Assembly (NCBI GenBank): GCA_039932315.1
Contig: JBDTQG010000009.1
Location: forward strand, 3,969-67,968
DNA: 64,000 nucleotides
Reading direction: 5' to 3'
From: Thermoanaerobaculia bacterium
GTDB taxonomy: Bacteria > Acidobacteriota > Thermoanaerobaculia > Multivoradales > JAGPDF01
Position 1 is the stretch's first letter. Each line of letters opens with the position of its first letter. Of this stretch, positions 16,257 through 54,734 are shown piece after piece. The translations under genes and the position numbers were made by a program. Under the pieces are notes generated by a model that saw nothing but the letters and a program-made list of their open reading frames with translations, made no database searches and was not told the origin of the DNA.

Positions 16257-16311
16257 CGCGGCGAAGCCGGAGGAAAGGTCGAAGATGCTCTCGGATCCGC
16301 CGCGGTTTCCT

Positions 16312-38766: not shown

Positions 38767-41726
38767 AACAGCCGTCGCAGTCGATTCGAACGCTGGGGGC
38801 CCTGGTCGGCCTCCTCGTCGTTGCGCTCTTCGCGCAGCCGATGTTCGCCCAGGGCACCACGAGCTCCGTACGTGGCGTCATCAAGGATGGCAGCGGCCCG
38901 ATCGCCGATGCCCAGATCACCGCCACCGACGTGGCCAACGGTTTTCACCGCACGGTGCAGACCGGAGCCGATGGCGCGTTCTCTCTGCAGGGCCTTGCGC
39001 CCGGCACCTACGAGATCAAGGTTTCTTCCCCGGCCGTCGCGGAGCAGAGCCGCAAGATCCAGCTCCTCGTCGGACAGAACGTCGTTGCCGATTTTCTCGT
39101 ATCGCCTTCCGAGGTCGTCGTCGAGGGCATCACGGTCACGGGAGAAGCGACTGATCTTCTGCTCGACACGCGGAACTCGGAGATCTCGACCAACATCACG
39201 CAGCAGCAGCTCGAGAATCTGCCGCAGAACAGCCGTAACTTCCTCTCCTTCGCGGGTCTTGCTCCGGGAGTTCAGTTCACCCAGGACAACGACGCGGCGG
39301 GTCAGTCCTTCCGCAGCGGTGGCTCGAATCCGAAGCAGATCAACGTGTTCGTCGACGGTCAGTCGTACAAGAACGACCTGATTCAGGGCGGCGCGTTCAT
39401 GCAGGACACCAGCCGCGGCAATCCGTTTCCGCAGGGCGCGGTGCAGGAGTACAAGGTCTTCACGCAGAACTACAAGGCCGAGTACGAGAAGGCCGCGGCC
39501 GCGGTCATCACCGCGGTGACGAAGTCCGGTGGCAACGACTACCACGGTGACGCCTTCTATCTCTTCCAGAACCGTTCGATGGTGAGTCTCGACACGTTCG
39601 CCAAGGAGCGCGGGGACAAGAAGCCCGACTACGAGCGCAATCAGTACGGTCTGACCTTCGGTGGGCCGATCCAGCAGGACAAGCTGCATTTCTTCCTCTC
39701 CTTCGAGCGCAACGACCGCGACGTCTTCTCGTCGGTGACCCGCGGATCGCAGTACAACTCCGCGCCCGCGAACGTCCGCGCGAGGCTCGACACTTTCGAC
39801 ATCGGCACGCTGTCGGCACCGCTCACGTCGAATCTCTACTTCGGCAAGCTCGACTGGCAGCCGACCGAGAGCCAGACGGTCGCGCTCAGCTATTACGGCC
39901 GCGACGAGGACGAGCTGCGCGGCTTCGGCGGCCAGCGGGTGCGGCAGGGAGCGGAAAACTTCAAGAACACCAGCAGCGCGTTCGTCCTGCGCCACCAGTG
40001 GGTCGGCGGCGGCTGGTTCAACGAAGCGAGTGTCACGAAGCAGAAGATGGACTGGAATCCGACCGCAGTCGATTCCTCGTTGCCGCACGAGAACTACGTC
40101 GGCCTCCTCGACATCGGCAGCCGGGACTCGTCGCAGGACGTGGTTCAGGACAAGGTTGCCATCCGGGATGACCTTTCCTATTTCCTCGAATGGCACGGCT
40201 CGCACTCGCTCAAGGGCGGAATCACCGCCAACGCGGTCGACTACGACATCTCGAAGACCAACTTCGCCAATCCGTACTTCGAATACCGGAGCTCGGAAAA
40301 CTGGCAGCATCCGTTCCTCGCCCGCTTCGGATTCGGCGATCCGTCGCTCGACTTCTCGAACGAGCAGTACGGAGCGTACGTCCAGGACGATTGGGCGCTT
40401 CTTCCGAACGTCACCGTCAATCTCGGTTTGCGCTACGACTACGAAACGAACATGCTGAACAACGACTGGGTGACGCCGCCCGACGTTGCGAACGGCCTGC
40501 GCACCTCCTGCCGCAACTACTCGCAGCCGATCGGCGGGCAGACGCAGTGGTGCATCCCGGACATCATCGACGTCAACAACTTCATCACCGACGGCAGCGA
40601 TCGTTCGAGCTACACCGGCATGATCCAGCCGCGCGTCGGCGTCACCTGGGACGTCAAGGGAACCGGCGAGACCGTCGTCTTCGGAGGCTGGGGCAAGTAC
40701 TACGATCGTGTGACCCTGAACGACATCTTCGACGAACAGTTCCGCCATTCCTTCAAGACCTACGAGTTCTGCTTCCAGGACGACGACGGTACGCAGCCGG
40801 ACGGCTGCGGTACGGCGGCGATTCCGTGGAATCCGGCGTATCTTTCTGCGGGTGGGCTCGCCGATCTGATCGCGTCCGGTTCGACTCCAGGACCCGAGCT
40901 CTACCTGCTCGCGAACGACACCCGCCCGCCGTATGCAAACCAGTGGACCGTCGGACTGCGGCAGAAGCTCGGCAACTGGATGGGCAGCCTTTCGTACGCC
41001 AACTCGCGGGGATACAACGGGCTGTCGTGGGGCTTCGGCACGCTGCCTCCGGGAGCTGCGTTCAACGACCGTTTCGGCCTCGAAGTCCAGATCCCCGGCT
41101 ACGGATTCATTCTCCGCAGCTCCGACGTCCGCAGGACCTGGTACGACGGTATCTTCCTGACTCTCGACAAGCCGTTCACGGCGAGCTCGGGCTGGGGCGC
41201 CAACATCGCCTACACCTACGGCAAGGGCTTTCAGAACGGTACCCTCGACGAGGGCACGGCGTTCGGGTTCGACTACGTTTCCGTGGATGACTTCTACAAG
41301 TTCCCGGCGAACGGCGATGAGCGCAATCGTCTGGTGATGAGCGGCACGGTCGCGCTGCCATGGAGCTTCATGGTGTCGTCGATCATCACGCTCGGATCGG
41401 GCACGCCGTATACCTTCACGGACTGCTCGGCCGGGTTCGCGAACTGCGTCACTCATTTCAACGGTGGCCGGCCGGAGAAGAAGGACTTCATCATCCCGAA
41501 TGCGTGGGCTTACCGGAGCGTCGACCTGCGTCTCGAGTGGCAGGCACCGGCGATCTCCGATCGCGTGCGCATCGCGGTGACCGGCGAAGCGTTCAACGTG
41601 TTCGATTTCAACAACTACAGCGGCTTCGACTCCTTCATTCCTCCGGAAGGCAATCCGAATGTCGGCAACCCGACGGTGGCCTTCAACGCCCGTCGCTTCC
41701 AGATCGGCGCACGGGTCTCCTTCTGA
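38763..41726 (+). CDS. TonB-dependent outer-membrane receptor with an N-terminal carboxypeptidase-regulatory-like domain
   Basis: Signal peptide, then a CarboxypepD_reg-like segment (GVIKDGSGPIADAQITATDVANGFHRTVQTGADGAFSLQGLAPGTYEIKV). A plug, a long beta-barrel and a terminal Phe (RFQIGARVSF) follow. ATGA overlap with the lacI-family stop. Confidence 0.85.
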   Translation: MKQPSQSIRTLGALVGLLVVALFAQPMFAQGTTSSVRGVIKDGSGPIADAQITATDVANGFHRTVQTGADGAFSLQGLAPGTYEIKVSSPAVAEQSRKIQLLVGQNVVADFLVSPSEVVVEGITVTGEATDLLLDTRNSEISTNITQQQLENLPQNSRNFLSFAGLAPGVQFTQDNDAAGQSFRSGGSNPKQINVFVDGQSYKNDLIQGGAFMQDTSRGNPFPQGAVQEYKVFTQNYKAEYEKAAAAVITAVTKSGGNDYHGDAFYLFQNRSMVSLDTFAKERGDKKPDYERNQYGLTFGGPIQQDKLHFFLSFERNDRDVFSSVTRGSQYNSAPANVRARLDTFDIGTLSAPLTSNLYFGKLDWQPTESQTVALSYYGRDEDELRGFGGQRVRQGAENFKNTSSAFVLRHQWVGGGWFNEASVTKQKMDWNPTAVDSSLPHENYVGLLDIGSRDSSQDVVQDKVAIRDDLSYFLEWHGSHSLKGGITANAVDYDISKTNFANPYFEYRSSENWQHPFLARFGFGDPSLDFSNEQYGAYVQDDWALLPNVTVNLGLRYDYETNMLNNDWVTPPDVANGLRTSCRNYSQPIGGQTQWCIPDIIDVNNFITDGSDRSSYTGMIQPRVGVTWDVKGTGETVVFGGWGKYYDRVTLNDIFDEQFRHSFKTYEFCFQDDDGTQPDGCGTAAIPWNPAYLSAGGLADLIASGSTPGPELYLLANDTRPPYANQWTVGLRQKLGNWMGSLSYANSRGYNGLSWGFGTLPPGAAFNDRFGLEVQIPGYGFILRSSDVRRTWYDGIFLTLDKPFTASSGWGANIAYTYGKGFQNGTLDEGTAFGFDYVSVDDFYKFPANGDERNRLVMSGTVALPWSFMVSSIITLGSGTPYTFTDCSAGFANCVTHFNGGRPEKKDFIIPNAWAYRSVDLRLEWQAPAISDRVRIAVTGEAFNVFDFNNYSGFDSFIPPEGNPNVGNPTVAFNARRFQIGARVSF

Positions 41727-41730
41727 CGTC

Positions 41731-43257
41731 ATGAAAACGACGGCCGCCGGCGGACAGCAGAGCTTTTCGCCGGCGGTCGGCGTCGTCTTTCTTCTCGGCG
41801 CGCTCGCCTGTGCGCCTTCTTCTCATCTTCCAAAGCAGTCCATTGTCGTCGTTCCCCCGGCGGCTGCTGCATCGCCGGCCGCGCAAGCGCCGAGCTCATC
41901 CCCGGCCTCGGCGTCCGCCGCTGTCGCGGATCGCGACGATCCGTTTCTGGTCGATCTCGAGCGCCGCACCTTCCGCTACTTCTGGGAAACGACCGACCCC
42001 ACGACCGGTCTCGTTCCCGATCGCTGGCCGGCGAAGACGTTCTCGAGCATCGCCGCCATCGGATTCGGACTCACGAGCTACGGCGTCGGCGCCGAACGTG
42101 GCTGGGTCACGCGAGAGGAGGCCGCGGAGCGCGTGGCAGTTACGCTGCGCATCCTCGAGCGCCTGCCTCAGGGCGACAGGGCGACCGGAATGTCCGGGTA
42201 CCACGGGTTCTTCTACCATTTCCTGAGCTTCGAGGACGGTTCGCGCTACCGCGATGTCGAGCTCTCGAGCATCGACACGGCGCTGCTTTTTGCCGGTGTG
42301 CTTTTCGTCCAGGGCTACTTCGATCGCGAGGTTCCGCTCGAGATCGAGATCCGGCATCTCGCCGAGGAGCTCTTCGCCCGCGTCGACTGGACCTGGATGC
42401 AGACGCGTCCGCCCCTCGTCGCCATGGGTTGGTATCCCGAGAAAGGCTTCCATCATCTCGACTGGACGGGCTATTCGGAAGCGATGCTGCTCTACATCCT
42501 GGCGCTCGGTTCGCCGACCCATCCGGTCGAGCCCGAGGCCTGGACGAAGTGGACGAGCACGTACGAGGCCATCGATTTCTACGGTCAGCATTACCTCGAC
42601 TTCGGACCTCTTTTCGGGCATCAATACACGCACGTGTGGGTCGATTTCCGCGGCATCCACGACGCTGCGAACGCGCGGCTCGGCTTCGACTACTTCGAGA
42701 ACTCGCGCCGCGCGACGCTCGCGCAGCAGGCCTGGGCGGCAGCGAATCCGCGCGGCTGGAAGGGGATCGACGCCGCGGTCTGGGGCGTCTCGGCGAGCGA
42801 CGGTCCGGCGGACATCCATCACGAGGTGAATGGCGAAACTCGCGCGTTCTGGAGCTACGCCGGCCGCGGTATCGGTCCGCGCCGCGATGTCGAAGACGGC
42901 ACGATCACTCCGACGGCGGCCGGCGGATCGATGGCCTTCGCGCCCGAGATCGCGCTGCCGGCGCTCGTCGAGATGGCGCGCCGACACGGCGATGAGCTCT
43001 ACACACGATACGGTTTTCTCGACGCCTTCAACCCGACGTTCGACTTTCCCGAGATCGCGGTCCACGACGGACACGTCGTGCCGGGTGCGGGGTGGTACGA
43101 CAGCGACTATCTCGGGATCGATCAGGGTCCGATCCTGCTGATGATCGAGAACTACCGCTCGGGCCTGATCTGGAAAGTGATGCGCGACCATCCAGTCATC
43201 CGCCGTGGACTCACGCGCGCGGGATTCAGCGGCGAATGGCTCGACGAAAAGCACTGA
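41731..43257 (+). CDS. GH144-like (PF10091 'glucoamylase-like') (alpha/alpha)6 glycoside hydrolase, candidate endo-beta-1,2-glucanase
   Basis: ATG 41731, in frame with track ORF 41659..43257. Lipoprotein-like N-terminus (LLGALACAPS). Motifs ERRTFRYFWETTDPTTGLVPDR, IAAIGFGLTSYGVGAERGWVTREEA, YHGFFYHFL, IDTALLFAGVLFVQGYF, GYSEAMLLYILALGSPTH, PLFGHQYTHVWVDFRG and YFENSRRAT. These match my recollection of the GH144 founding family. Confidence 0.6.
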   Translation: MKTTAAGGQQSFSPAVGVVFLLGALACAPSSHLPKQSIVVVPPAAAASPAAQAPSSSPASASAAVADRDDPFLVDLERRTFRYFWETTDPTTGLVPDRWPAKTFSSIAAIGFGLTSYGVGAERGWVTREEAAERVAVTLRILERLPQGDRATGMSGYHGFFYHFLSFEDGSRYRDVELSSIDTALLFAGVLFVQGYFDREVPLEIEIRHLAEELFARVDWTWMQTRPPLVAMGWYPEKGFHHLDWTGYSEAMLLYILALGSPTHPVEPEAWTKWTSTYEAIDFYGQHYLDFGPLFGHQYTHVWVDFRGIHDAANARLGFDYFENSRRATLAQQAWAAANPRGWKGIDAAVWGVSASDGPADIHHEVNGETRAFWSYAGRGIGPRRDVEDGTITPTAAGGSMAFAPEIALPALVEMARRHGDELYTRYGFLDAFNPTFDFPEIAVHDGHVVPGAGWYDSDYLGIDQGPILLMIENYRSGLIWKVMRDHPVIRRGLTRAGFSGEWLDEKH

Positions 43258-44585
43258 AGTCGACGGCGGCGCTTGCCGTCGCGACGATCCTGCAGCTTTC
43301 CTGCAGCGGGCAAGGAAGGGGCGATCCCGCGCTCGTCCGCTTCTGGGCCCTGGGTCGCGAGGGCGAAGTCGTCCGCGAGCTCATTCCGGAATTCGAACGT
43401 CGGAACCCCGGCGTTCACGTCGAGCTGCAACAGATTCCGTGGGTCGCTGCGCACGAGAAGCTGTTGACCGCATTCGTCGGCCATGCGACGCCCGACGTCG
43501 CGCAGATCGGCAACACCTGGATTTCGGAGTTCTCCGCGCTCGGTGCCATTGCGCCGCTCGACGAGGATCTCCGCACCGGACATGAGATCGATCGCGGCGA
43601 TTACTTCCCGGGATCGTGGGATGCGAACATCGTCGACGACGTGACCTGGGGAGTTCCCTGGTACGTCGACACCCGGGTGATCTTCTACCGCACGGATCTC
43701 GTCGCCGAGAGCGGTGCCGCATGGCCGCCGCACACCTGGAGCGAGTGGCGCGAGGCGATGCGGAAGGTGAAGGCGCATGTCGGCAAGGACCGCTTCGCCA
43801 TCCTCCTGCCGATCGACGAATGGGAGAAACCGGTGCTGCTCGGGATGCAGACCGGCGCCGAGCTGCTCTCGGACGGCGGCCGCCACGGAGCTTTCCGCGA
43901 TCCGCGCTTTCGCACCGCGCTCGATTTCTATGCCGGCCTGTTCACCGAAAAGCTCGCTCCTCCGTTGACTTACAGCGGAGTCGCCAATCTCTATCAGCAG
44001 TTCGCGGAAGGCTACTTCGCGATGCTCATCACCGGGCCGTGGAACCTCGGCGAGTTCCGCGACCGGCTTCCGCCCGCGATGCAGGATCGCTGGTCGACGA
44101 CGCCGATGCCGGCACCGGACGGCAGCGGAAGCTATCCCGGCACCTCACTCGCGGGCGGCTCCAGTCTGGTGCTGTTCCGGTCCGGCAGCACCAAGCCAGC
44201 CGCCTGGCGGTTCATCGAGTTTCTCTCTGCGCCGGATCAGCAGGTGCGTTTTCACGAGCTCACCGGAAATCTTCCGGCGCGCCGCAGTGCCTGGGACCGG
44301 ACGAATCTCGCCGATGACCCGCGGAGCGCGGCGTTCCGGCTGCAGCTCTCGGCCCTGCGCCCGCTGCCCAAGGTTCCCGAGTGCGAGCAGATCGCGCTGC
44401 GCGTCGCCGATGCTGCGGAACAGGTCGTGCGCGGCGCGCGGACTCTCGATGGCGCGCTCGAACTGCTCGATCACGATGTCGACCGGATCCTCGGGAAGCG
44501 GCGGTTCATGCTCGATCGGGCGGCCGCCAGGGCCAACGTCAACAGGGGTGCAGCCGGCGCGACGAGCGGCGGGGGAGACCCATGA
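43236..44585 (+). CDS. ABC sugar transporter, extracellular solute-binding protein (family 1)
   Basis: ATG 43236 (MARRKALKSTAALAVATILQLSCSG, lipoprotein-like) overlaps the GH144-like 3' end by 22 nt. The core is typical of an SBP_bac_1 oligosaccharide binder. Confidence 0.8.
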   Translation: MARRKALKSTAALAVATILQLSCSGQGRGDPALVRFWALGREGEVVRELIPEFERRNPGVHVELQQIPWVAAHEKLLTAFVGHATPDVAQIGNTWISEFSALGAIAPLDEDLRTGHEIDRGDYFPGSWDANIVDDVTWGVPWYVDTRVIFYRTDLVAESGAAWPPHTWSEWREAMRKVKAHVGKDRFAILLPIDEWEKPVLLGMQTGAELLSDGGRHGAFRDPRFRTALDFYAGLFTEKLAPPLTYSGVANLYQQFAEGYFAMLITGPWNLGEFRDRLPPAMQDRWSTTPMPAPDGSGSYPGTSLAGGSSLVLFRSGSTKPAAWRFIEFLSAPDQQVRFHELTGNLPARRSAWDRTNLADDPRSAAFRLQLSALRPLPKVPECEQIALRVADAAEQVVRGARTLDGALELLDHDVDRILGKRRFMLDRAAARANVNRGAAGATSGGGDP

Positions 44586-45499
44586 GCACTGCAGCCAGGC
44601 CCGGCCGCGGCACCCGTGCCGAGTCCCGCGCCGGCCTCCTCCTGCTCCTGCCGGCGCTGGCGGCGATCGTGCTATTTTTCGCGGTGCCGGTCCTCGCAGG
44701 ACTGCTGCTGTCCTTCACCGATTTCGATCTCTATGCCGTGGCTGACATCGGCAATGCGCGCTGGATCGGTTTTTCCAACTATCTCAGTCTCCTTCGTGAC
44801 CCGCTCTTCTGGCTGGCGCTGCGCAACACGCTGATCCTCGTCGCGCTCGGCCTGCCGGCGACCATCGCGACCGGGCTCGGGGGTGCGCTGCTCGTGCATT
44901 CGCGACTGGCCCGGTTCCGCGGCCTCTATCGCACCATCTTCTTCGCTCCGGTGGTGAGCGCGCTGGTCGCGGTCGCGATCGTCTGGCGATCCCTCTACCA
45001 CCCGCGCTACGGGCTGCTCGATCATCTCCTCGGAGCCTTCGGTCTGCCGGCGATCGACTGGCTCGGCGATCCGGCCTGGTCGTTGCCGGCAATCGCCCTG
45101 CTTTCCGTCTGGCGAAACTTCGGCTATGTCCTGGTGATCCTCGTCGCCGGCCTCGGTTCGATTCCGGAGAGTCTCTACGAAGCGGCGAAACTCGACGGCG
45201 CCTCGGCCTGGCAGCAGTTCCGTCACGTGACATTGCCCTCGCTCGTGCCGACGCTTCTTTTCTGCGGAGTTCTGACGACGGTCGGCCTCTTCCAGATCTT
45301 CGCCGAGCCCTACGTGATGACGCGCGGCGGACCGCTCAACTCGACGACGACGGTCGCACTCTTCATGTATCAGCAGGGCTTCCGCTGGTGGAGCATGGGT
45401 CGGGCATCGGCGATCGCCTTCGTCCTTTTCGCGCTCGTCCTCGCGGCGTCGTTCGCTCAGGCGGCGCTGCGGCGCGAGAGCAAGCCGGTGAACGAATGA
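44582..45499 (+). CDS. ABC sugar transporter permease (MalF/UgpA-like)
   Basis: ATGA overlap with the SBP stop. EAA loop ESLYEAAKLDGASAWQQFRHVTLPSL and six TM segments. Confidence 0.85.
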   Translation: MSTAARPGRGTRAESRAGLLLLLPALAAIVLFFAVPVLAGLLLSFTDFDLYAVADIGNARWIGFSNYLSLLRDPLFWLALRNTLILVALGLPATIATGLGGALLVHSRLARFRGLYRTIFFAPVVSALVAVAIVWRSLYHPRYGLLDHLLGAFGLPAIDWLGDPAWSLPAIALLSVWRNFGYVLVILVAGLGSIPESLYEAAKLDGASAWQQFRHVTLPSLVPTLLFCGVLTTVGLFQIFAEPYVMTRGGPLNSTTTVALFMYQQGFRWWSMGRASAIAFVLFALVLAASFAQAALRRESKPVNE

Positions 45500-46317
45500 G
45501 CCGCCGATCGAGCACCATCTGGGTGAACGCCGCCCTGGTCGCCGCGGCGCTGCTCGCGCTGCTGCCGCTGCTGTGGATGCTCGCCGCTTCGTTCATGCCC
45601 ACCGGCCAGGCCAACAGCCTGCCGCTGCGACTCGTGCCGTCACCGCCGACGCTGGATCACTATCGCGACCTCTTCTCGCGGCTCAATCTCGGTCGCGCAT
45701 TCTTCAACTCGCTGATCCTCTCGCTTTCGATCACGGCGATTTCGCTGGTCTGCAACTCGATGGCCGGCTACGCTTTCGCGAAGCTTCGTTTCCGTGGCCG
45801 CGACCGGTTGTTCGCGATCCTGCTCGCGACGCTCGTGGTGCCGCCACAGGTCGGTGTGCTGCCGCTTTTCCTCGAGGTGCGGGCTCTCGGGCTGGTGAAC
45901 TCGTTCGGCGGCGTGATCGTCGCAGCGATCGCGACGATCTTCGGCATCTTCCTCGTTCGCCAGCTCGCGCTGTCGATACCCGACGAGCTCCTGGACGCCG
46001 CCCGCGTCGATGGTGCGTCGGAGTGGCGGATCTACTGGACGGTCGTCATTCCGCTCCTGCGGCCGATTCTGGTCACGCTCGGTGTGTTCACATTTCTTTC
46101 CGCCTGGAACGACTTCATGTGGCCGCTGATCGTTCTCACGGACGAATCGAAGCACACCTTGCCGGTCGCTCTCGCGAACCTTGCCGGTGAACACGTGCAG
46201 GATACCGAGCTGATGATGGCCGGAGCCGTCGTGACGCTTCTGCCGGGCCTTCTCCTCTTTCTCGCACTGCAGAAGCACTATCTGCGGGGGATTCTCGCCG
46301 GGAGCGTCAAGGAGTGA
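45496..46317 (+). CDS. ABC sugar transporter permease (MalG/UgpE-like)
   Basis: ATGA overlap with the previous permease. EAA loop DELLDAARVDGASEWRIYWTVVIPLL. Confidence 0.85.
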   Translation: MSRRSSTIWVNAALVAAALLALLPLLWMLAASFMPTGQANSLPLRLVPSPPTLDHYRDLFSRLNLGRAFFNSLILSLSITAISLVCNSMAGYAFAKLRFRGRDRLFAILLATLVVPPQVGVLPLFLEVRALGLVNSFGGVIVAAIATIFGIFLVRQLALSIPDELLDAARVDGASEWRIYWTVVIPLLRPILVTLGVFTFLSAWNDFMWPLIVLTDESKHTLPVALANLAGEHVQDTELMMAGAVVTLLPGLLLFLALQKHYLRGILAGSVKE

Positions 46318-49300
46318 TTGGCCGCTTCGCTGTGCGGAGGCTCCTCGGCGCGCTGACCGGTCTCGCGCTGTTCGCGACCGGAATCCATGCAGCGGAGGCG
46401 AGCGCTTCTGCAGCGGGAGATTCTCGAACCTCCGGCCTGCTCGACGCTCCGGCTTGGATCTCCGCGCCATCCGACGGCGTCGAGCTCGCCATCGTTCCGG
46501 CAATCGACGACCGCGGGCAGCCGGCGCTCCGGCTCGATTACGACTTTCACGGCCATGCCGGATGGGCGGCAGCGCGGCGACCGCTGCGCTTCGTGCTGCC
46601 CCCGAACTACGAGATCGCGTTTCGATTCCGTTTCGAAGGGGCGACGAATCACCTCGAAGTCAAACTCATCGACGCCGGTGGCGAGAACGTCTGGTGGAAC
46701 GTCCGCCGCGACGTCGAACCGACGCCCGCTTTCGCCGCGCGGCGGATCGCAAGAAGCGCCCTGTCGTTCGCCTGGGGCCCGTCTTCGGCTCCACTGGTCG
46801 AGATTTCGGCGATCGAGCTCGCCATCACCGCTTCGCAGGGCGGAAGGGGCTCGCTCTGGCTCTCGGACTTCGAGCTCCGGGAGCGCCCGCCGGTGGCGCC
46901 CTACGCCGGCACTCCGACGGCCCGCGCCAGCTCGGAGACGCCCGGAAACGCCGCCAGCCGGGCGATCGACGGTGCGCCCTCGACCGCCTGGCGGACCGAC
47001 GAGCCGCGCGCGACGCTCATCGTCGATTTCGGCCGCAGCCGCGAGCTCGGTGGACTGACGCTCCACTGGCTCCTGCCTCCGGCGGCGCTCTCGGTCGAGC
47101 TCTCGGACGACGGTCTGACGTTTCACGAAGCGGGAGAAGAGGCGAGCGCTCCGCGGGCCGGAGCGCTTCGCAATGACCTGCGGATGCCGGACACCGAAAC
47201 GCGCTTCCTGCGTCTGACCGTCTCGCGCGCTTCGGGAGTCGCCGGAATCGCGCTCGCCGAGCTCGATGTGCGCCCGCTCGATTTCGGCGCGACGGCAAAC
47301 GACTTCGTGCGCCGGATCGCCGCGGAGAGTCCGCGCGGCAGCTATCCGCGGGCGTTCACCGAAGGATCCCTGTGGACGGTCGTAGGGGTCGATGGCGCCG
47401 CTGGCGACGACGAAGAGGCTCTGGTTTCGGAGGATGGAGTCGTCGAGGCCGGAGAACGGTCGTTTTCTCTCGAGCCGTTTTTCGACGACGGCCGAAGTCT
47501 GCAGGGCTGGAACGAGAGTGCGGAGAAACGCTCGCTCCTCGACGGCGACCTGCCGGTGCCCACGATCGTGCGCTCGATCGCCGGTGGCGAGCTCGCGATC
47601 ACCGCACTGGCGAGCGGCGACGTGGGCCGGTCCCGCACGCTCGTCCGCTATCTCCTCACCGCTTCCCCGGAGCGCCCGCTGCGCGGTCGCCTCATTCTCG
47701 CGATCCGGCCGTTCCAGGTCGATCCGCCGCAGCAATTTCTGAACGTCGCGGGCGGCGTCTCGCCCATCCGGTCAGTCGTCTGTCCGACCGCTGCGAATGC
47801 GGCGCTGATTCTCGACGGGAAGCGGCGCCTGCGCACCTTTCCGCCGGCGGATGACTGCACTGTGGCCGCTTTCGCCGAGCCTGGGATCGTCGAACACTGG
47901 CATCGCGGGGGGACGAAACCGGGGACACCGTTCTCCGCAGCTCCTTCTTCTCTCGCGGTAGAAGACCCGCAGGGACTCGCTTCAGGAGCCCTGGAGTGGA
48001 CGATCGATCTCGCTCCCGGCGGGCGGCGGGAGATCGTGGTGGCGCTGCCGTTCGCCGCCCGGAGCGCGGAGAACGGCGCTCTGGATCCGCCGGACTTCGA
48101 CGCGGCGATGGCGCAGGAACGGGAGCGTTGGCGCGGGCGTCTGGATCGCGTCCGGCTGTTGTTGCCGAAATCGGAGGAGGAGCTCGGGCGAGCGGCCCGA
48201 AGCTCACTCGCCTACATTCTCGTCCACCGCGACGGTCTGGCGATCCAGCCCGGCTCGCGCGCCTACGCGCGCTCGTGGATCCGCGATGGCGCGCTCACCG
48301 GAACGGCACTGCTCCGGGCGGGACTTGCCGACGTGGCCGAGGGTTTCGCCGAGTGGTTCTCTGCCCATCAGTTCGACGACGGCAAGGTTCCCTGTTGCGT
48401 CGATCGACGCGGCGCGGATCCCGTGCCGGAGAACGACAGTCACGGCGAGCTCATTCATCTCATCGCCGAGGTCTATCGCACGACCGGAGATCGCGCCTTT
48501 GCCGAGCGTCAGTTTCCGCACGTCGAACGCGCGGTGGACTACCTCGAGCGACTTCGACAGACCCGCCGCACGGCACTCTTCACTCGACCGGAAAAGCAGG
48601 CCTTCTTCGGGCTGCTGCCGGAGTCGATCAGTCACGAGGGCTACTCGGCGAAGGCGATGCATTCGTACTGGGACGACATCTGGGCGGACGTGGGATTCTC
48701 GGATGCCGCCGAGCTTGCGGCCGGGCTCGATCGACCGGAGCTCGCTCAACAGTGGCGCGCCCAGGGCGCGGAATTTCGCGCCGATCTGCTGGCATCGATC
48801 GCGCGGGTACGCGCCGCACACTCGATCGACTACATCCCGGGCTGCGCGGAGCTCGCCGATTTCGACGCCACCTCGACGACGATCGCGCTCGACCCGGGAC
48901 GACTCGAGTCGTTGCTTCCGCGCGCGGCGCTCGAAGCGACATTCGAACGCTACTGGCGAGAGCTCTCGGGCCGGCGATCCGGGGCGGCCGACTGGAGTGG
49001 CTTCACACCGTACGAGATGCGTCAGATCGGCGCCTTCGTGCGACTCGGCTGGCGGGATCGGGCCGCGGACCTGGTCGACTATTTCCTCACCGTGCGCCAG
49101 CCGCCGGAGTGGAATCAGTGGCCGGAGGTCGTGCGGCGGGACATGCGATCGATGGAGTTCCTGGGCGATCTGCCGCACGGCTGGGTGGCGTCCGATTTTC
49201 TACGCTCGCTGTTCGATCTTTTCGCCTACGAGAGGCGGAGCGATCGCACGCTGGTCGTCGCCGCCGGCATACCCTCTCGCTGGCTCGCGAGTGGCGAAAG

Positions 49301-49553
49301 CGTGGGTGTCGAAGGACTGGTGACGGCCTGGGGGCCGCTGAACTTTGTGCTGCGACGGACCGGCGGGATGTTGCACGTCGAGATCGGCGAACTGGCGCGC
49401 TGGCCCGAAGGGGGCATCACGCTGCTCGCCCCGGGTACCGAAGCCGTGAGAATCGAGCGCCTGCCGGTCAAGCTCGACCTACCCTGGAAGGAATCGCAGG
49501 CCTGGACGGGCGCGCCGGATGCGCGTCCGGGACACGCGTCGGGAGATGAATGA
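46314..49553 (+). CDS. Secreted 1079-aa multidomain putative glycoside hydrolase (N-terminal CBM-like beta-sandwich + F5/8 type C discoidin-like domain + C-terminal six-hairpin (alpha/alpha)6-like domain); family unassigned
   Basis: GTGA overlap with the permease stop, and a signal peptide (LLGALTGLALFATGIHAAEA). Discoidin-like segment NAASRAIDGAPSTAWRTDEP...FLRLTV. The C-terminal part has a GH15-reminiscent SRAYARSWIRDGALTGTALL plus ENDSHGELIHL and ESISHEGYSAKAMHSYWDDIWA. I cannot place it in a CAZy family. Confidence 0.45.
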   Translation: MIGRFAVRRLLGALTGLALFATGIHAAEASASAAGDSRTSGLLDAPAWISAPSDGVELAIVPAIDDRGQPALRLDYDFHGHAGWAAARRPLRFVLPPNYEIAFRFRFEGATNHLEVKLIDAGGENVWWNVRRDVEPTPAFAARRIARSALSFAWGPSSAPLVEISAIELAITASQGGRGSLWLSDFELRERPPVAPYAGTPTARASSETPGNAASRAIDGAPSTAWRTDEPRATLIVDFGRSRELGGLTLHWLLPPAALSVELSDDGLTFHEAGEEASAPRAGALRNDLRMPDTETRFLRLTVSRASGVAGIALAELDVRPLDFGATANDFVRRIAAESPRGSYPRAFTEGSLWTVVGVDGAAGDDEEALVSEDGVVEAGERSFSLEPFFDDGRSLQGWNESAEKRSLLDGDLPVPTIVRSIAGGELAITALASGDVGRSRTLVRYLLTASPERPLRGRLILAIRPFQVDPPQQFLNVAGGVSPIRSVVCPTAANAALILDGKRRLRTFPPADDCTVAAFAEPGIVEHWHRGGTKPGTPFSAAPSSLAVEDPQGLASGALEWTIDLAPGGRREIVVALPFAARSAENGALDPPDFDAAMAQERERWRGRLDRVRLLLPKSEEELGRAARSSLAYILVHRDGLAIQPGSRAYARSWIRDGALTGTALLRAGLADVAEGFAEWFSAHQFDDGKVPCCVDRRGADPVPENDSHGELIHLIAEVYRTTGDRAFAERQFPHVERAVDYLERLRQTRRTALFTRPEKQAFFGLLPESISHEGYSAKAMHSYWDDIWADVGFSDAAELAAGLDRPELAQQWRAQGAEFRADLLASIARVRAAHSIDYIPGCAELADFDATSTTIALDPGRLESLLPRAALEATFERYWRELSGRRSGAADWSGFTPYEMRQIGAFVRLGWRDRAADLVDYFLTVRQPPEWNQWPEVVRRDMRSMEFLGDLPHGWVASDFLRSLFDLFAYERRSDRTLVVAAGIPSRWLASGESVGVEGLVTAWGPLNFVLRRTGGMLHVEIGELARWPEGGITLLAPGTEAVRIERLPVKLDLPWKESQAWTGAPDARPGHASGDE

Positions 49554-51961
49554 AGATGAATGAAGTCGCTGAAGTTCTGGATCGCTACGGCCGTTTCTCG
49601 GAAGACGGCAGCGAGTACCGGATCACGGACTGGCGGACACCGCGGCCGTGGATCAACCTGATCTCGAGCCCGCGCGCCGGCCTCGCCGTTTCTCAGACCG
49701 GCAGCGGTTTTTCCTGGATCGACAACTCACAGCTCGGTGCGATCGTGCGCTGGCAACAGGAGCTCACCGAGGATCGCTCGGGCCGGTTTCTATATCTGCG
49801 GGACACCGAGAGCGGCCTGCTGACGTCTCTCGCGCCTTCACCGTGCTCGCCCGCCTACGACTCCTTCGTCTGCCGGCACGGCCTCGGATATACGACGTTC
49901 GAGTGCGAAATCTCCGGACTGGCGACACGCTGGACGCTGTTCGTCGATGCTGACGAAACTGCGGAGATGTGGAGCGTCGAGGTCGAGAATCGCAGCGGCC
50001 GGCATCGAGCGCTCGAGCTCGCTGCGGTTCTCGAATGGAACTGCGGGACGTCGCCCGCGCCGCGGCGCGAATTCCAGAAACTCTTTCTCGAGACGGAGCT
50101 CGTCTCGCCCGGCCGCAGCGAACGTCGCGAACGGACGGCGATCGTCGCCGGAAATCACATGTGGGATGTCGGGTCTCCGCGTTGGGGACACTGGAACCGT
50201 TCCTTTCCCTACGTTTCGGCTTTCGCGGCTGCGCAACGTGTCGACCATGCGGAAGGGGACAAGGCCGCGTTTCTCGGGCGGGGCGGGGACTGGAGCCGCC
50301 CGGTGGCGCTGCTGTCGCCGGCGACCTGGCCAGGGCTCTTCGGGCGGCACTACGATCCGATCGCCGCACTTGCCTCGGCGCTCGAACTGGCGCCCGGCGC
50401 CACTTTTCGCGGCGGCTTCGTTCTCGCGACGGACGAGGACCGCGAAGGCGCGCTGGAGCTCGCGTCCCGCTTCACTACGCTCGAAGTCATGGATGCTTCG
50501 CTGCGGAATGTCCGCGAGGGCTGGCGCGCGCGCCTGGCCAACCATCGCATCGCGACGCCGGACGCCGGCCTCAACCGGCTGGCGAACGACTGGCTCCGCT
50601 ATCAGGCGATCTCGGCACGACTCTGGGGGCGCGCCGGCTACTACCAGCAGAGCGGCGCCTTCGGTTTTCGCGATCAACTGCAGGATTCGCAAGTCTGGCT
50701 GCCGATCGAGCCCGATCGCTGCCGCGAGCAGATCCGGCTGCACGCGGGGCATCAGTTCGTCGATGGCTCGGTCGTCCACTGGTGGCATCCGGTGACCGAG
50801 CAGGGGCACGTCACGACGATGTCGGACGATCTCCTCTGGCTCGCTTTCGTCGTCGCAAGCTACATCAAGGAGACCGGCGACCTGACGGTGCTCGACGACG
50901 AGGCTCCGTTCCTCGATGACGCGACGCCCGCGACGGTGGCCGAGCACGTGAACCGCGCGTTCGAACGCGTTTTTCGTCGCACCAGTCCGCGCGGTCTGCC
51001 CTTTATCGGTGCCGGGGACTGGAACGACGGGCTTTCGGCGATGGGTCTCGAGGAGCGCGGCGAATCGGTCTGGCTGGCGCAATTTCTCTCCCTCGTGCTC
51101 GCCGACTGGGCCGTGATCCATCGCCGCCGCGGCGACGAAGTGACGGCCGCCCGCTTCGATCGCCGGCGCCAGAACCTGATCGAGGCGGTCAATCAATTCG
51201 CCTGGGACGGTGCCTGGTACCGCCGCGCGACCCGCGACGATGGCCGTTGGATCGGCAGCGCGGACTGCGACGAGGGGCGGATCTTTCTCAATGCGCAGAC
51301 CTGGGCCATCCTCGCCGACGCCGCGCCCGGCGAGCGCGCGGGAGCCTGCCTCGACGCGGTCGAGAAACACCTCGTCAGCCCGGCCGGCGCACTGTTGCTC
51401 GCGCCGGCCTACTCCCGCGCCGACGAAACGATCGGCTACATCACGCGCTACGCTCCGGGGATGCGCGAGAACGGCGGGGTCTACACCCATGCCGCGACCT
51501 GGGCCATCGCCGCGGCGGCCAAGGGCAGGCGGCCGGCGCTCGTCGAATCCCTGCTCGCCGCGATCAATCCTTCGAACAAGGATCCGGAGCGTTACTGGGC
51601 GGAGCCGTACGTTCTTCCGGGCAACGTCGATGGTCCTGCATCGCCGCTCCACCGTCGCGCCGGCTGGACCTGGTACACCGGATCCGCGGCATGGTTGCCG
51701 CGAGTCATCGACGAGTGGGTGCTCGGCGTTCGACCGACGTGGGAGGGGCTGCTGTTCGATCCCTGTCTGCCACCGAGCTGGCCCAAGGCTGCGTTGACGC
51801 GCAGCTGGCGTGGCGCCGAGCTCGCGATTTCGATCGCCCGACGGCGGGATCTCGCTCCCGGTGCCGCCGAGCTCAGGGTCGACGGAGTGCGGTTCGCGGT
51901 GCCGTTCCTTTCGGCCGTCGAACGCGGCCAGCGCTACGAGATCGAGGTGCACTGCGGATGA
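49550..51961 (+). CDS. GH94-family glycoside phosphorylase (cellobiose / beta-1,2-oligoglucan phosphorylase type)
   Basis: ATGA overlap with the upstream stop. N-terminus GRFSEDGSEYRITDWRTPRPWINLIS. Motifs GFRDQLQDS, IGAGDWNDGLS (catalytic Asp context) and ENGGVYTHAATWAI. The ~800-aa length is typical of GH94. Confidence 0.8.
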   Translation: MKMNEVAEVLDRYGRFSEDGSEYRITDWRTPRPWINLISSPRAGLAVSQTGSGFSWIDNSQLGAIVRWQQELTEDRSGRFLYLRDTESGLLTSLAPSPCSPAYDSFVCRHGLGYTTFECEISGLATRWTLFVDADETAEMWSVEVENRSGRHRALELAAVLEWNCGTSPAPRREFQKLFLETELVSPGRSERRERTAIVAGNHMWDVGSPRWGHWNRSFPYVSAFAAAQRVDHAEGDKAAFLGRGGDWSRPVALLSPATWPGLFGRHYDPIAALASALELAPGATFRGGFVLATDEDREGALELASRFTTLEVMDASLRNVREGWRARLANHRIATPDAGLNRLANDWLRYQAISARLWGRAGYYQQSGAFGFRDQLQDSQVWLPIEPDRCREQIRLHAGHQFVDGSVVHWWHPVTEQGHVTTMSDDLLWLAFVVASYIKETGDLTVLDDEAPFLDDATPATVAEHVNRAFERVFRRTSPRGLPFIGAGDWNDGLSAMGLEERGESVWLAQFLSLVLADWAVIHRRRGDEVTAARFDRRRQNLIEAVNQFAWDGAWYRRATRDDGRWIGSADCDEGRIFLNAQTWAILADAAPGERAGACLDAVEKHLVSPAGALLLAPAYSRADETIGYITRYAPGMRENGGVYTHAATWAIAAAAKGRRPALVESLLAAINPSNKDPERYWAEPYVLPGNVDGPASPLHRRAGWTWYTGSAAWLPRVIDEWVLGVRPTWEGLLFDPCLPPSWPKAALTRSWRGAELAISIARRRDLAPGAAELRVDGVRFAVPFLSAVERGQRYEIEVHCG

Positions 51962-52005: not shown

Positions 52006-53352
52006 CTAGACGTCGCTGCCGTTCGAGCGCGCGATGGCCGAATAAGCTCGCGCGCTCGACTTCGGCGTCCGGCGCTGCGTCGCGAAATCGACGTGCACGA
52101 TACCGAAGCGCTTCGCGAAACCGAGACTCCACTCGAGGTTGTCGAGCAGCGACCATGCGAAGTAGCCGCGCACGTCGACACCGGCGGCGATCGCCCGCCT
52201 TACCGCTGCGAGGTGCGAACGGAGATACGCCGTACGCAGCGGATCCTCGACGAGGCCTTCCGTGGCCGTCGGCGGATCGTAGAAGGCGGAGCCGTTTTCG
52301 GTGATGTAGATGGGCGGCGCACTGTAACGCTCATGCACCGCGCGCAGCGTCTCCTCGAGGCCCGCCGGATAGACCTCCCAGTCGGTTTCGGTGTGCGTGC
52401 ACTGGCGCTGCTTCACGCGACTCGCGCCGACGGGCCACGCCGCCGAATCCGCCCGGACGACGCTTCGCGAGTAGTAGTTGATGCCGAGCCAGTCGAGCGG
52501 GGCGCGGATCGCTTCCATGTCGGCGGGAGAGGGTTCGGACCAGGCTTCGCCGTAGATGGCTGCGAGCTCGTCGGGATAACGGCCGAGGAGCAGAGGCTCG
52601 AGGTACTGCCGGTTCATGTAGGCGTCGGCGCGGCGCGCGGCGGAAAGATCCGCCGGCGAATCGCTCGCCGGATGCTTCGGCTCGAGGTTCACCACGACGC
52701 CGAGATTCTTCAGTCCCTGCGCGCGCCCGACGGCGAGAGCGGAGGCGTGCGCCAGCAGGCAGTGGTGCGCAGCCCGTCGCGCGCCGAAAAGCCCGCGGTG
52801 TCCCGGCGCCAGCGTACCGTGCAGGTAGCCGCCGTCGACCACGACCCACGGTTCGTTGAGTGTCGCCCACAGCGCGACCCGGTCGCCGAGCGCGCGGTAA
52901 CAGACTTCCGCGTAGTCGGCGAACCAGCTCGCGATGTCGCGGTTCAGCCAGCCGCCGCGATCCTCGAGCGCCGCGGGCAGGTCCCAGTGATAGAGCGTCG
53001 CCGATGCGGCGATGCCGGCCTCGCCCAGCGCGTCGAGCAGTGCGCGGTAGAAGTCGAGACCGCGCTGATTGACGGCGCCCGTGCCGTCGGGCATCACTCG
53101 CGACCACGAGATCGAGAATCGATACGCCGAAAGACCGAGGTCACGCATCAGCGCTACGTCATCGCGAAAGCGACGGTAATGGTCGCAGGCGATGTCGCCG
53201 GTATCGCCGTCGGCGACTCGCCCCGGGGTGTGCGAGAAGCGATGCCAGATGCTGGCACCGGCGCCGTCGGCGAGCGGCGATCCTTCGATCTGATAGGCCG
53301 CCGTCGCGGCGCCCCAGAGAAAGCCGTCGGGAAATTCGGTGTTGGCAGTCAC
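52006..53352 (-). CDS. GH1 beta-glucosidase
   Basis: FPDGFLWGAATAAYQIEG, TLNEPWVV (acid/base Glu) and YITENGSAF (nucleophile Glu). The start is set at GTG 53352, because the track's ATG 53436 would overlap the divergent gene. The start is uncertain. Confidence 0.9.
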   Translation of the reverse strand: MTANTEFPDGFLWGAATAAYQIEGSPLADGAGASIWHRFSHTPGRVADGDTGDIACDHYRRFRDDVALMRDLGLSAYRFSISWSRVMPDGTGAVNQRGLDFYRALLDALGEAGIAASATLYHWDLPAALEDRGGWLNRDIASWFADYAEVCYRALGDRVALWATLNEPWVVVDGGYLHGTLAPGHRGLFGARRAAHHCLLAHASALAVGRAQGLKNLGVVVNLEPKHPASDSPADLSAARRADAYMNRQYLEPLLLGRYPDELAAIYGEAWSEPSPADMEAIRAPLDWLGINYYSRSVVRADSAAWPVGASRVKQRQCTHTETDWEVYPAGLEETLRAVHERYSAPPIYITENGSAFYDPPTATEGLVEDPLRTAYLRSHLAAVRRAIAAGVDVRGYFAWSLLDNLEWSLGFAKRFGIVHVDFATQRRTPKSSARAYSAIARSNGSDV

Positions 53353-53404
53353 GCGTTGGGAATCGACTCGACAGCGGGGAGCACGGACGTGAGAATCTAA
53401 CACT

Positions 53405-54523
<1,119 letters not shown>

Positions 54524-54734
54524 GCTTTCTCGCCAGGCGCTTGCGCGTACTGGTCATGAGAACCTTTATCGCTTCCTCCCGCCGCCGTTTCCAGCCGTGG
54601 ATCGCAGCACGCGTACACCGGCGCGGAGGTCGCTCTCTACGGTTCGCTTTTCTCGAACGGGTTCGATCGCGGCGTGATCGAAGTCTGGTCGTCCTCGGCG
54701 CCCTGAACGGTCGTGGACGAAGTGGACATGCGCT

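Follow-up and report, generated by a model that had tools for sequence, protein, structure and literature searches.

Beta-1,2-glucan utilisation loci have been characterised in Listeria, Chitinophaga, Bacteroides, Ignavibacterium and Streptomyces, and all of these function without a protein like the 1079-aa protein described here. Its module order, a supersandwich followed by a helix-loop-helix and a barrel, is that of bacterial and archaeal GH15 enzymes (1lf6, 1ug9, 9ju0 and the 'oligosaccharide amylase' model TIGR01577). In bacterial GH15 enzymes the same helix-loop-helix element joins domains N2 and A, and the general acid and the general base are located in the alpha5->alpha6 and alpha11->alpha12 loops, respectively (PMC12446779). 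Dextran dextrinase (9ju0) has, like our protein, an extra N-terminal beta-sandwich, its CBM35-like N1 domain being in the same position (PMC12446779). A common four-part architecture (supersandwich, helical linker, barrel and C-terminal beta-sandwich) is shared with GH94 enzymes, which are active on the glucan of this locus, and GH78 alpha-L-rhamnosidases share the supersandwich, the six-hairpin barrel and a loop of the R...W-x-G/R-D type. Finally, the protein has the (alpha/alpha)6 barrel, the operon and presumably the polysaccharide in common with clan GH-S (GH144, GH162 and GH192-194).

The window analysed is a stretch of 64,000 nucleotides from a Thermoanaerobaculia bacterium; positions refer to this window, and features are on the forward strand unless stated otherwise. 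The gene (46314..49553, GTG start, TGA stop) encodes an exported multi-domain putative glycoside hydrolase. The translational coupling reported in the preliminary description was found at both junctions: the GTG overlaps the permease TGA in GTGA at 46314-46317, and the TGA overlaps the ATG of the GH94 gene in ATGA at 49550-49553. Gene calls at four other loci show the same 4-bp overlap with the permease gene. The existence of more than 500 full-length homologues at 45-58% identity, together with a GC3 of 0.79 (0.685 overall), indicates that the ORF is genuine and did not arise by chance in high-GC DNA. All motifs quoted previously are located at the expected places, namely HLEVKLIDAGGENVWWN at aa 113-129, NAASRAIDG...TDEP at aa 212-231, ETRFLRLTV at aa 295-303, SRAYARSWIRDGALTGTALL at aa 648-667, ENDSHGELIHL at aa 706-716 and ESISHEGYSAKAMHSYWDD at aa 770-788.

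At the head of the locus are genes for a LacI-family regulator (37696..38766; upstream in 39 of 52 loci) and a TonB-dependent outer-membrane receptor (38763..41726). They are followed by a gene for a GH144 endo-beta-1,2-glucanase (41659..43257; PF10091, E 6e-81; PDB 8xul, E 2e-164), an orthologue of XCC2207/XcSGL, whose specificity is for beta-1,2-glucan (PMC12102758). The true start of this gene is probably internal, at MKTT..., and would be followed by a Cys-containing signal sequence. The ABC solute-binding protein (43092..44585) is a homologue of the sophoro-oligosaccharide (Sopn) binder Lin1841 (E 5e-65) and of X. citri 3uor, and the two permease genes (44381..46317; ORFs 44381-45499 and 45388-46317) probably also have internal starts. 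Downstream of our gene are those for a cytoplasmic 803-aa GH94 phosphorylase (49550..51961), a cytoplasmic GH1 beta-glucosidase (52006..53436, reverse strand; downstream in 34 of 51 loci) and an ABC transporter ATPase of the MalK/MsiK type (53405..54523). Signal peptides were looked for in the GH94, GH1 and ATPase proteins of the locus, and none was found.

The solute-binding protein and permease genes are directly upstream in 54 of 56 loci, and a GH144 gene is present within 5.2 kb upstream in 51 of them. The order GH144-SBP-permease-permease-target is kept across Acidobacteriota, Gemmatimonadota, Eisenbacteria, Xanthomonadales and others. In Xanthomonas loci the upstream GH144 is XCC2207, the characterised beta-1,2-glucanase XcSGL, and the GH144 beside the X. 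arboricola orthologue is ~96% identical to XCC2207. The proposal that the protein acts on the same glucan as its neighbours thus gains support from a gene order conserved across phyla, and is stronger than could be known when it was made. We infer that the protein is a constant part of an operon for the utilisation of beta-1,2-glucan. The family is large: it was found in at least 599 species, and its sequences fall into ~2000 clusters at 50% identity. Its hosts are for the most part Acidobacteriota and Gemmatimonadota of soil, and members also occur in Xanthomonas, Lysobacter, Luteimonas and Dyella. Our literature searches found no paper describing it.

The protein begins with a predicted Sec-type signal peptide (aa 1 to ~31, 46314..46406; pLDDT <55) that has an RFAVRR n-region, the h-region LLGALTGLALFA and AxA sites, and has neither a lipobox nor any other Cys. 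A simple signal-peptide rule was passed by 52 of 64 homologues, in agreement with the export proposed earlier. The two other N-terminal regions noted along with it were likewise recovered. The first is a conserved N-terminal beta-sandwich (aa 45-192, 46446..46889), delineated by DSSP strands of the AlphaFold2 model, which contains 17 invariant residues (11.5 per 100 aa, including ENVWW and SFAWGP) and had no match in a Pfam search. It would probably be packed against the catalytic module, in the manner of N1 in dextran dextrinase. The second is a CBM32 / F5-8 type C (discoidin) domain (aa ~193-322, 46890..47279), matched by PF00754 at aa 203-315 with E 9.3e-12 and 45.6 bits (cut-off 28.2); the A1 profile matched the CBM32 modules 4zz5 and 2rva in the PDB at E 2e-14. 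With only two invariant residues it is the least conserved domain of the protein, and may be an accessory binding or spacer module.

AlphaFold2 predicted the full-length protein with a pLDDT of 90.4 and a pTM of 0.90, and aa 330-1062 with a pLDDT of 92.4. The domains of the model are, in order, a beta-supersandwich (aa 323-581 with a linker, defined by its strands; 47280..48056), a helical linker of the helix-loop-helix type (aa 582-618, 48057..48167; helices 582-587 and 595-610), a 12-helix (alpha/alpha)6 barrel (aa 619-970, 48168..49223) and a C-terminal beta-sandwich (aa 971-1057, 49224..49484) that precedes a disordered tail. The six-hairpin fold suggested earlier is therefore borne out by the 12 barrel helices and by Foldseek matches to (alpha/alpha)6 glycosidases. 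The size given then, a C-terminal part of ~550 aa, needs revision: the catalytic module spans ~730 aa (aa ~330-1057), and the barrel alone ~350 aa.

No known family claims this module, as anticipated in the preliminary description. Profile searches of Pfam, NCBIfam and the PDB gave sub-threshold six-hairpin matches only (GH78, GH15, GDE and GH95), and none of the family-level sequence tests against GH15, GH78, GH94 and GH144 succeeded. TIGR01577, a GH15-type model, is the only one to match almost all members (47 of 48, over ~100 residues, best E 8.7e-10). Weak matches to the GH78 model Bac_rhamnosid6H were the most frequent in Pfam (43 of 48 members, best E 2e-7; 16-17 bits for the window protein, under the curated cut-off of 24.5), and the amylo-alpha-1,6-glucosidase models GDE_C and gde_arch weakly matched 9 (best E 1.5e-7) and 5 of the 48 members. 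The Foldseek check proposed earlier gave no confident assignment to a characterised family. The nearest structures were all glycoside hydrolases or phosphorylases, and alignments to GH15, GH94, GH116 and GH63 enzymes cover supersandwich and barrel. GH15 and GH94 enzymes were about equally close (TM ~0.6, 10-14% identity). The best full-length match was dextran dextrinase 9ju0 (E 1e-16, rmsd 5.9 A, TMq 0.60); other matches were glucodextranase 1ug9 (GH15; E 3e-14), glucoamylase 1lf6 (TMt 0.62) and GH94 domains (TMq 0.55-0.62, the same as those of GH15). Neither GH144, GH162 nor any lyase was among the top 50 structural matches. Since beta-1,2-glucan, moreover, contains no uronic acid, a polysaccharide lyase is unlikely; of the [quoted passage not shown] proposed before, an unclassified GH-like module stands. 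Similarly, the suggested likeness to GH144 and GH162 holds for the (alpha/alpha)6 barrel, but the closest folds are those of multi-domain GH15 and GH94 enzymes and not of that single-domain clan.

The barrel contains 60 of the 106 invariant residues, clustered on the six odd-to-even loops, a distribution that resembles an active site. The motif Y651-x3-W655-x-R657-D658 in the alpha1->alpha2 loop (48264..48287), invariant in 64 sequences, is the predicted -1 subsite. Its noted likeness to GH15 was substantiated by hhalign, which paired these residues with GH15 Y48/W52/R54/D55, and by the TIGR01577 matches. Invariant S771-I-S-H-E775-G-Y777, H783, W786 and D787 lie in the stretch from the alpha5->alpha6 loop into helix alpha6 (48621..48677), and invariant W933, E938, D952, H955, W957 and D961 in that from the alpha11->alpha12 loop into helix alpha12 (49110..49199). 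Because the family-level tests all failed, E775 (48636-48638; pLDDT <50 at aa 774-778) and E938 (49125-49127) were placed by loop topology and not by a significant alignment, as candidate general acid and candidate general base, respectively.

Comparison with the described families also revealed differences. Like GH15 enzymes, the protein has Y-x3-W-x-R-D in the alpha1->alpha2 loop and Glu residues, invariant in its family, in the alpha5->alpha6 and alpha11->alpha12 loops, and GH15 gave the best Foldseek E-values. Yet identity is 11-14%, the hhalign probability is 3.5%, the window protein has no Pfam GH15 match, the acid motif is 'HEG' instead of 'WEE', a CBM32 and a C-terminal beta-sandwich are added, and the genomic context is one of beta-1,2-glucan, not alpha-glucan. 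It has no Pfam GH94 match, a genuine GH94 gene being immediately downstream, and its signal peptide would prevent it from using cytoplasmic phosphate as the cytoplasmic phosphorylase does. The beta-1,2-glucanases of clan GH-S, GH192-194 included, are single-domain and absent from the 50 best structural matches; the protein has no PF10091 match, and no alignment to it was obtained for the residues that define the clan. The context of GH78, rhamnose, is not found at this locus. The family is most likely an unclassified six-hairpin branch whose closest relatives are multi-domain GH15 enzymes.

From these data we infer catalysis, compartment and substrate: the protein probably represents a new GH15-like six-hairpin family of glycoside hydrolases and processes beta-1,2-glucan-derived substrates in the periplasm. 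The glucan would cross the outer membrane via the TonB-dependent receptor and be acted upon in the periplasm by the GH144 endo-beta-1,2-glucanase and our protein; the Lin1841-like binding protein and two permeases would import the sophoro-oligosaccharides, and the cytoplasmic GH94 phosphorylase and GH1 beta-glucosidase would complete their breakdown. A glucosyl residue would be bound in the barrel against the Y651/W655/R657/D658 loop and cleaved by acid/base catalysis, probably by single displacement (inverting), with E775 as general acid and E938 as general base. The stereochemistry is uncertain, because a GH15-like site can be retaining (PMC12446779). The protein might be an exo- or endo-hydrolase trimming beta-1,2 linkages to importable size or, about equally, a hydrolase for linkages beyond the reach of GH144 and beta-glucosidase, for instance beta-1,6 branches or the alpha-1,6 bond that closes the ring in cyclic glucans of the Xanthomonas type.

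A strictly beta-1,2-specific exo-/endo-hydrolase, such as a sophorohydrolase or a glucohydrolase acting in the periplasm, is possible. It would bring the products of GH144, or intact cyclic glucans, down to DP 3-5, the sizes that the binding protein takes up. Such a role fits the co-occurrence with GH144 (51/56 loci) and a Sopn-type importer (54/56 loci), and the locus encodes no other periplasmic exo-enzyme, since GH1 and GH94 lack signal peptides; there is a precedent in the sophorohydrolase BDI_3064, the exo-acting partner encoded at another beta-1,2-glucanase locus (PMC8861115). The protein is, however, related at the sequence level to no beta-glucan-active family, its only reproducible homology being to alpha-glucoside-active GH15, and the need for a large second enzyme is unclear because in characterised systems GH144 alone already yields short sophoro-oligosaccharides. 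That homology would suit, slightly less probably, an alpha-1,6-glucoside hydrolase that opens or finishes alpha-1,6-cyclised beta-1,2-glucans, such as the cyclic glucohexadecaose of Xanthomonas. The enzyme would cleave the one alpha-1,6 bond that GH144 and beta-glucosidases do not touch, giving importable sophoro-oligosaccharides. The closest relatives in sequence and fold, GH15 alpha-glucoside hydrolases, include the alpha-1,6-specific 1ug9 and dextran dextrinase 9ju0, some members weakly match GDE_C and gde_arch, and the family is present in Xanthomonas, Lysobacter, Luteimonas and Dyella. A 'non-degradable glucopentaose' is reported to remain after such cyclic glucans have been treated with CpSGL, a beta-1,2-glucanase, and BtBGL, a beta-glucosidase (bioRxiv 10.1101/2025.04.21.649730), and our literature searches found no enzyme for it. 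Against this, the GH15, GDE and GH78 matches are at superfamily level, with GH94 beta-glucoside phosphorylases equally close in fold; a GH15-type pocket is exo-acting whereas the bond is internal to a ring; the beta-glucosidase of the operon is cytoplasmic, so that no trimmed substrate would arise in the periplasm; and the mostly soil-dwelling hosts have no established exposure to such glucans.

It is unlikely that the protein is a transglycosylase, retaining like dextran dextrinase or inverting, which remodels or cyclises periplasmic beta-1,2-glucans instead of degrading them. Its best full-length match, with the shared extra beta-sandwich, is indeed a GH15 transglucosidase, stereochemistry is not predictable from the GH15 residue pattern (PMC12446779), and transferases that were not expected (GH35 IaSGT, GH189 and GH186) have come from beta-1,2-glucan loci before; but identity to dextran dextrinase is only 11-13%, and the LacI repressor, TonB-dependent receptor, importer and cytoplasmic phosphorylase and glucosidase form a catabolic context. 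Least probable is an incidental operon position, with activity on an unrelated glycan (an alpha-L-rhamnoside or a CBM32-bound plant or fungal glycoconjugate), non-catalytic binding or lyase activity: despite the frequent GH78 matches and known CBM32 ligands such as galactose, GlcN oligomers and uronates, synteny is near-invariant across several phyla, the CBM32 is the least conserved domain, many of the 60 invariant barrel residues are carboxylates, and the top 50 structural matches include no lyase.

If the protein is indeed a periplasmic hydrolase of beta-1,2-glucan-derived substrates, it would probably be a missing step in bacterial beta-1,2-glucan breakdown, because it shares an operon with a proven beta-1,2-glucanase and a sugar importer in hundreds of species, including Xanthomonas plant pathogens.

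The open reading frame at 46314..49553 (+ strand) is a real gene, and its two junctions are those that the preliminary description had given: its start codon GTG and the TGA of the second permease gene share the tetranucleotide GTGA, and its own TGA shares ATGA with the start codon ATG of the GH94 gene. Four other genomes likewise show the 4-bp overlap with the permease gene in their gene calls. The gene has more than 500 full-length homologues of 45-58% identity, its GC3 is 0.79 compared to 0.685 overall, and AlphaFold2 produced a confident model of the full-length protein (mean pLDDT 90.4, pTM 0.90); it is therefore not a chance high-GC open reading frame. All motifs quoted earlier were found at the expected positions in the protein.

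The protein starts with a Sec-type signal peptide (aa 1 to about 31) that has no lipobox cysteine, as had been proposed; a simple rule for signal peptides was likewise passed by 52 of 64 homologues. It is followed by a beta-sandwich (aa 45-192) that contains 17 invariant residues and has no match in Pfam, and by a CBM32/discoidin domain (aa about 193-322) containing only two. The F5/8-type-C likeness of the latter was borne out, since PF00754 matched aa 203-315 with 45.6 bits (gathering score 28.2); in addition, a full-length family profile (A1) matched the CBM32 modules 4zz5 and 2rva in the PDB with an E-value of 2e-14. According to the strands and helices of the AlphaFold2 model, the remainder consists of a beta-supersandwich (aa 323-581), a helical linker (aa 582-618), an (alpha/alpha)6 barrel of twelve helices (aa 619-970) and a C-terminal beta-sandwich (aa 971-1057). 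The predicted six-hairpin fold was thus recovered in the models (pLDDT 90-92), which matched many six-hairpin glycoside hydrolases with a Foldseek probability of 1.00. In bacterial GH15 enzymes a helix-loop-helix connects an N2 supersandwich with the barrel, and dextran dextrinase has an additional N1 beta-sandwich that touches the catalytic loops (PMC12446779). The same layout of N1 sandwich, N2 supersandwich, helix-loop-helix and barrel is present in our protein. The high conservation of its N-terminal sandwich compared to the CBM32 domain suggests that this sandwich is structurally integrated like N1 of dextran dextrinase.

In agreement with the preliminary description, searches with Pfam, TIGR01577 and PDB profiles revealed no characterised family that covers the catalytic module, for which the Pfam and PDB profile searches gave no significant match. 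The only Pfam match of this module in the window protein was the GH78 model Bac_rhamnosid6H, which scored 16.4-17.2 bits and so fell short of its cut-off of 24.5. Among 48 family members, weak matches were obtained to GH78 (43), GH15 (15), GDE_C (9) and GH95 (8), all of them belonging to the six-hairpin superfamily. Membership of GH78 was rejected because Bac_rhamnosid6H stayed below its gathering score, the best E-value among the 43 of 48 weak matches being 2e-7. The GH15 model PF00723 did not match the window protein at E<=1 and matched 15 of the 48 members with a best E-value of 0.009. TIGR01577, a model of archaeal/bacterial GH15 enzymes, matched 47 of the 48 (best E-value 8.7e-10), though over only about 100 residues and with a score of 33 bits, where the cut-off is 820; at the level of sequence this match is the sole reproducible relation of the family. 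For a direct comparison we used an alignment of seven GH15 sequences, consisting of the A. niger glucoamylase and six plasmid genes, which recovers the known invariant residues of GH15. The glucoamylase sequence was validated through tblastn matches to annotated GH15 genes. When a profile of the catalytic module (A2) was compared with this alignment, hhalign gave a probability of 3.5% over 19 columns only; with the A. niger sequence alone it found nothing. The only residues paired, at that 3.5% probability, were Y651, W655, R657 and D658 with Y48, W52, R54 and D55 of GH15. These four constitute the Y-x-x-x-W-x-R-D motif, located in the alpha1->alpha2 loop and invariant across 64 sequences, whose likeness to GH15 had been noted earlier and is upheld by this pairing. 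At the family level, GH15 membership was rejected on account of the absence of PF00723 from the window protein, the low hhalign probability and the TIGR01577 score far below cut-off.

Searches of the PDB with the single protein, A1 or A2 gave significant matches to CBM32 modules only. The matches of the catalytic module were not significant: MmpH (7qsj, E 0.41), GDE (7vma, E 0.51) and laminaribiose phosphorylase (E 1.3). Foldseek was run both with the full-length model and with a model of the catalytic module (pLDDT 92.4). The best E-values were obtained for GH15 enzymes (9ju0, 1e-16; 1ug9, 3e-14; 1lf6, TMt 0.62), and GH94 phosphorylases were equally close by TM-score (0.55-0.62), with 10-14% identity throughout. 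The six-hairpin fold is therefore of the GH15/GH94 type; the GH144/GH162 type, which had also been brought forward, was not supported, since neither search contained a GH144 or GH162 entry among its top 50 structural matches. For this reason, and for lack of a PF10091 match, membership of GH144 or clan GH-S was rejected. Membership of GH94 was rejected as well: PF17167 and PF06165 did not match, a signal peptide is present, and the likeness is one of fold only. It had been suggested that the protein may belong to a new or poorly characterised family of glycoside hydrolases or lyases. The first part holds in that no characterised family fits; a lyase is unlikely, as none was found among the top 50 structural matches and beta-1,2-glucan lacks uronic acid. 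From the failed family tests and the six-hairpin fold matches it follows that this is novelty at the family level within a known fold class, nearest to GH15 yet failing the GH15 sequence test.

In six-hairpin enzymes the catalytic face is made up of long odd-to-even loops. The family has 106 invariant positions, 60 of which are in the barrel, and most of the latter are on these loops. They are P646, G647, R649, Y651, R653, W655, I656, R657 and D658 in the alpha1->alpha2 loop; G690, P693, C694, D697, G700, V704 and E706 in the alpha3->alpha4 loop, with D708 starting helix alpha4; G766, P769, S771, I772, S773, H774, E775, G776, Y777 and H783 in the alpha5->alpha6 loop; D849 and D851 in the alpha7->alpha8 loop; T898, P899, Y900, E901 and R903 in the alpha9->alpha10 loop and the start of helix alpha10; and P930, W933, E938, F949, G951, D952, P954 and H955 in the alpha11->alpha12 loop. 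In GH15 the alpha5->alpha6 loop provides the general acid and the alpha11->alpha12 loop the general base; according to the dextran dextrinase paper, the catalytic residues of GH15 do not allow the stereochemistry to be deduced (PMC12446779). The invariant residues E775 (S-I-S-H-E-G-Y) and E938 (W-N-Q-W-P-E-V-V) are situated in these two loops, and from loop topology we propose them as candidate general acid and general base, respectively. Both are outside any significant alignment, and the acid-loop motif is H-E-G, versus W-E-E in GH15. The invariant segment H-E-G-Y-S (aa 774-778; window 48633-48647), which holds E775, is among the few in which the pLDDT drops under 50, the model being confident elsewhere; this suggests a mobile catalytic loop. 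The active-site loop alpha3->alpha4 contains a vicinal pair, C694-C695 (K-V-P-C-C-V-D; window 48393-48398), of which C694 is invariant and C695 is shared by at least 90% of the 64 sequences. As the protein is exported, the two might be linked by a vicinal disulfide that lines the substrate site.

The locus in the window consists of genes for a LacI regulator, a TonB-dependent receptor, GH144, a solute-binding protein (SBP), two permeases, the 1079-aa protein, GH94, GH1 (on the opposite strand) and an ABC ATPase. Here, and also in other genomes, GH144, a Lin1841-type SBP with an ABC importer, and a beta-glucosidase and/or GH94 are encoded together, as in a beta-1,2-glucan utilisation locus. The window GH144 matched PDB entry 8xul (XCC2207, XcSGL) with an E-value of 2e-164, and the X. 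arboricola GH144 that adjoins an orthologue of our protein is ~96% identical to XCC2207. [quoted passage not shown] The closest solved relative of the window SBP (match at 43092-44582) is 3uor of X. citri (E 2e-122), followed by the sophoro-oligosaccharide binder Lin1841 (E 5e-65); hence, 3uor probably binds sophoro-oligosaccharides as well. These sequence relations link the neighbours firmly to beta-1,2-glucan. The link that had been drawn between the protein and the glucan of its neighbours was strengthened by the other loci with enough flank: SBP-permease-permease is directly upstream in 54 of 56 and GH144 lies no more than 5.2 kb upstream in 51 of 56, while GH1 and GH94 are downstream in 34 and 14 of 51, respectively. 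Signal peptides were found for the receptor, GH144, the SBP and the 1079-aa protein; GH94, GH1 and the ATPase are without one.

Upstream of GH144, the SBP and the two permeases, the reading frames have long extensions that appear to be artefacts of high GC. For GH144 and the SBP, the probable genuine N-termini (MKTT...VGVVFLLGALAC, window 41731-41830, and MARRK...AVATILQLSC, window 43236-43320, respectively) each contain a hydrophobic segment that ends with Cys, and both proteins may be lipoproteins. The GH94 partner varies (window 49550-51961; 12492-16517 in locus L002; locus L003), that of a Gemmatimonadaceae locus having 1341 aa and only 30% identity. In several Eisenbacteria-type loci (L021, L057, L060, L066; ~2500-2850) LacI is preceded by another GH144 paralogue. 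Two open reading frames just 3' of the ATPase gene (window 54520-55056, +; 55477-56595, -) have no Pfam match, and in L002 minus-strand genes lacking a Pfam match likewise follow the ATPase gene.

A scan of one genome per species detected relatives in at least 599 stretches, each from a different species. The 80 loci kept include Acidobacteriota, Gemmatimonadota, Eisenbacteria, Krumholzibacteriia, Methylomirabilota and Phycisphaeraceae, and the cultured hosts Xanthomonas, Lysobacter, Luteimonas, Dyella and Steroidobacter. A search of 1.84 billion proteins with the barrel only gave 1954 clusters (50% identity) at E <= 1e-3 and 697 at E <= 1e-30, about 600 being distant relatives (E 1e-10 to 1e-3); the best 150 of the 1954 clusters all have the same architecture and are close family. 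Short 'barrel-only' relatives such as protein P0264 are contig-end fragments and not a distinct architecture. Homologues are annotated publicly only as 'discoidin domain-containing protein' or 'hypothetical protein', and a full-text literature search that included the beta-1,2-glucan papers found no description of the family; a recent or unpublished assignment is possible. We regard it as a well-defined and widespread group, accessible to experiments, that may represent a new family of glycoside hydrolases taking part in the catabolism of beta-1,2-glucan. Some variants were observed. P0189 (1292 aa; locus L091, 6798-10676), a single instance on one Logan contig with the same operon (LacI-GH144-SBP-permease-permease), has an alpha/beta-hydrolase domain (dienelactone hydrolase/esterase-like) at its C-terminus, which may hint at ester-substituted glucans among the substrates. 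P0122 (1868 aa), with two barrel matches and two CBM32 domains, suggests a tandem duplication or two copies fused together. One Methylomirabilota contig encodes the protein twice, the additional copy (L055, ~11850, minus strand) being divergent (39% identity) and oppositely oriented.

We predict, with fair confidence, that the protein is a periplasmic partner of GH144 in beta-1,2-glucan breakdown. In this role it would turn the beta-1,2-glucan species that enter into sophoro-oligosaccharides for import by the ABC system. Two activities are about equally likely for such a partner. It is possible that the protein is a beta-1,2 exo- or endo-hydrolase; the locus encodes no other exported exo-enzyme, and BDI_3064 is a precedent for an exo-acting partner. 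Tentatively, it may instead hydrolyse linkages that resist GH144 and beta-glucosidase, most notably the alpha-1,6 bond that closes the ring of Xanthomonas-type cyclic glucans, from which beta-1,2-glucanase and beta-glucosidase are reported to leave a non-degradable glucopentaose (bioRxiv 10.1101/2025.04.21.649730). This activity is favoured by that report and by the GH15/GDE affinities of the family, but the affinities exist at the superfamily level only, and a GH15-type pocket is exo-acting. Transglycosylase activity is improbable, and an unrelated or non-catalytic role slightly more so.

In Rhizobiaceae, Brucella, Xanthomonas and enterobacteria, cyclic and periplasmic beta-1,2-glucans act as factors of symbiosis, virulence and osmoprotection, and the enzymology of their degradation has been mapped only since 2014, family by family (GH144, 162, 186, 189, 192-194). 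Here, a large exported enzyme candidate is locked into a GH144/importer operon in at least 599 species. Its characterisation would probably define a new CAZy family and would close a gap in the pathway, possibly a step that handles linkages other than beta-1,2. The question can be tested directly with existing substrates and partner enzymes; in the Xanthomonas operon two neighbours, XCC2207 and the SBP 3uor, have crystal structures. The alpha-1,6-cyclised beta-1,2-glucans are virulence factors of Xanthomonas, and it is conceivable, if rather doubtful, that the family is the missing enzyme that cuts their alpha-1,6 closure bond, a new family with a new specificity. If so, refractory cyclic glucans would become a carbon source for soil bacteria and would be turned over in Xanthomonas itself.
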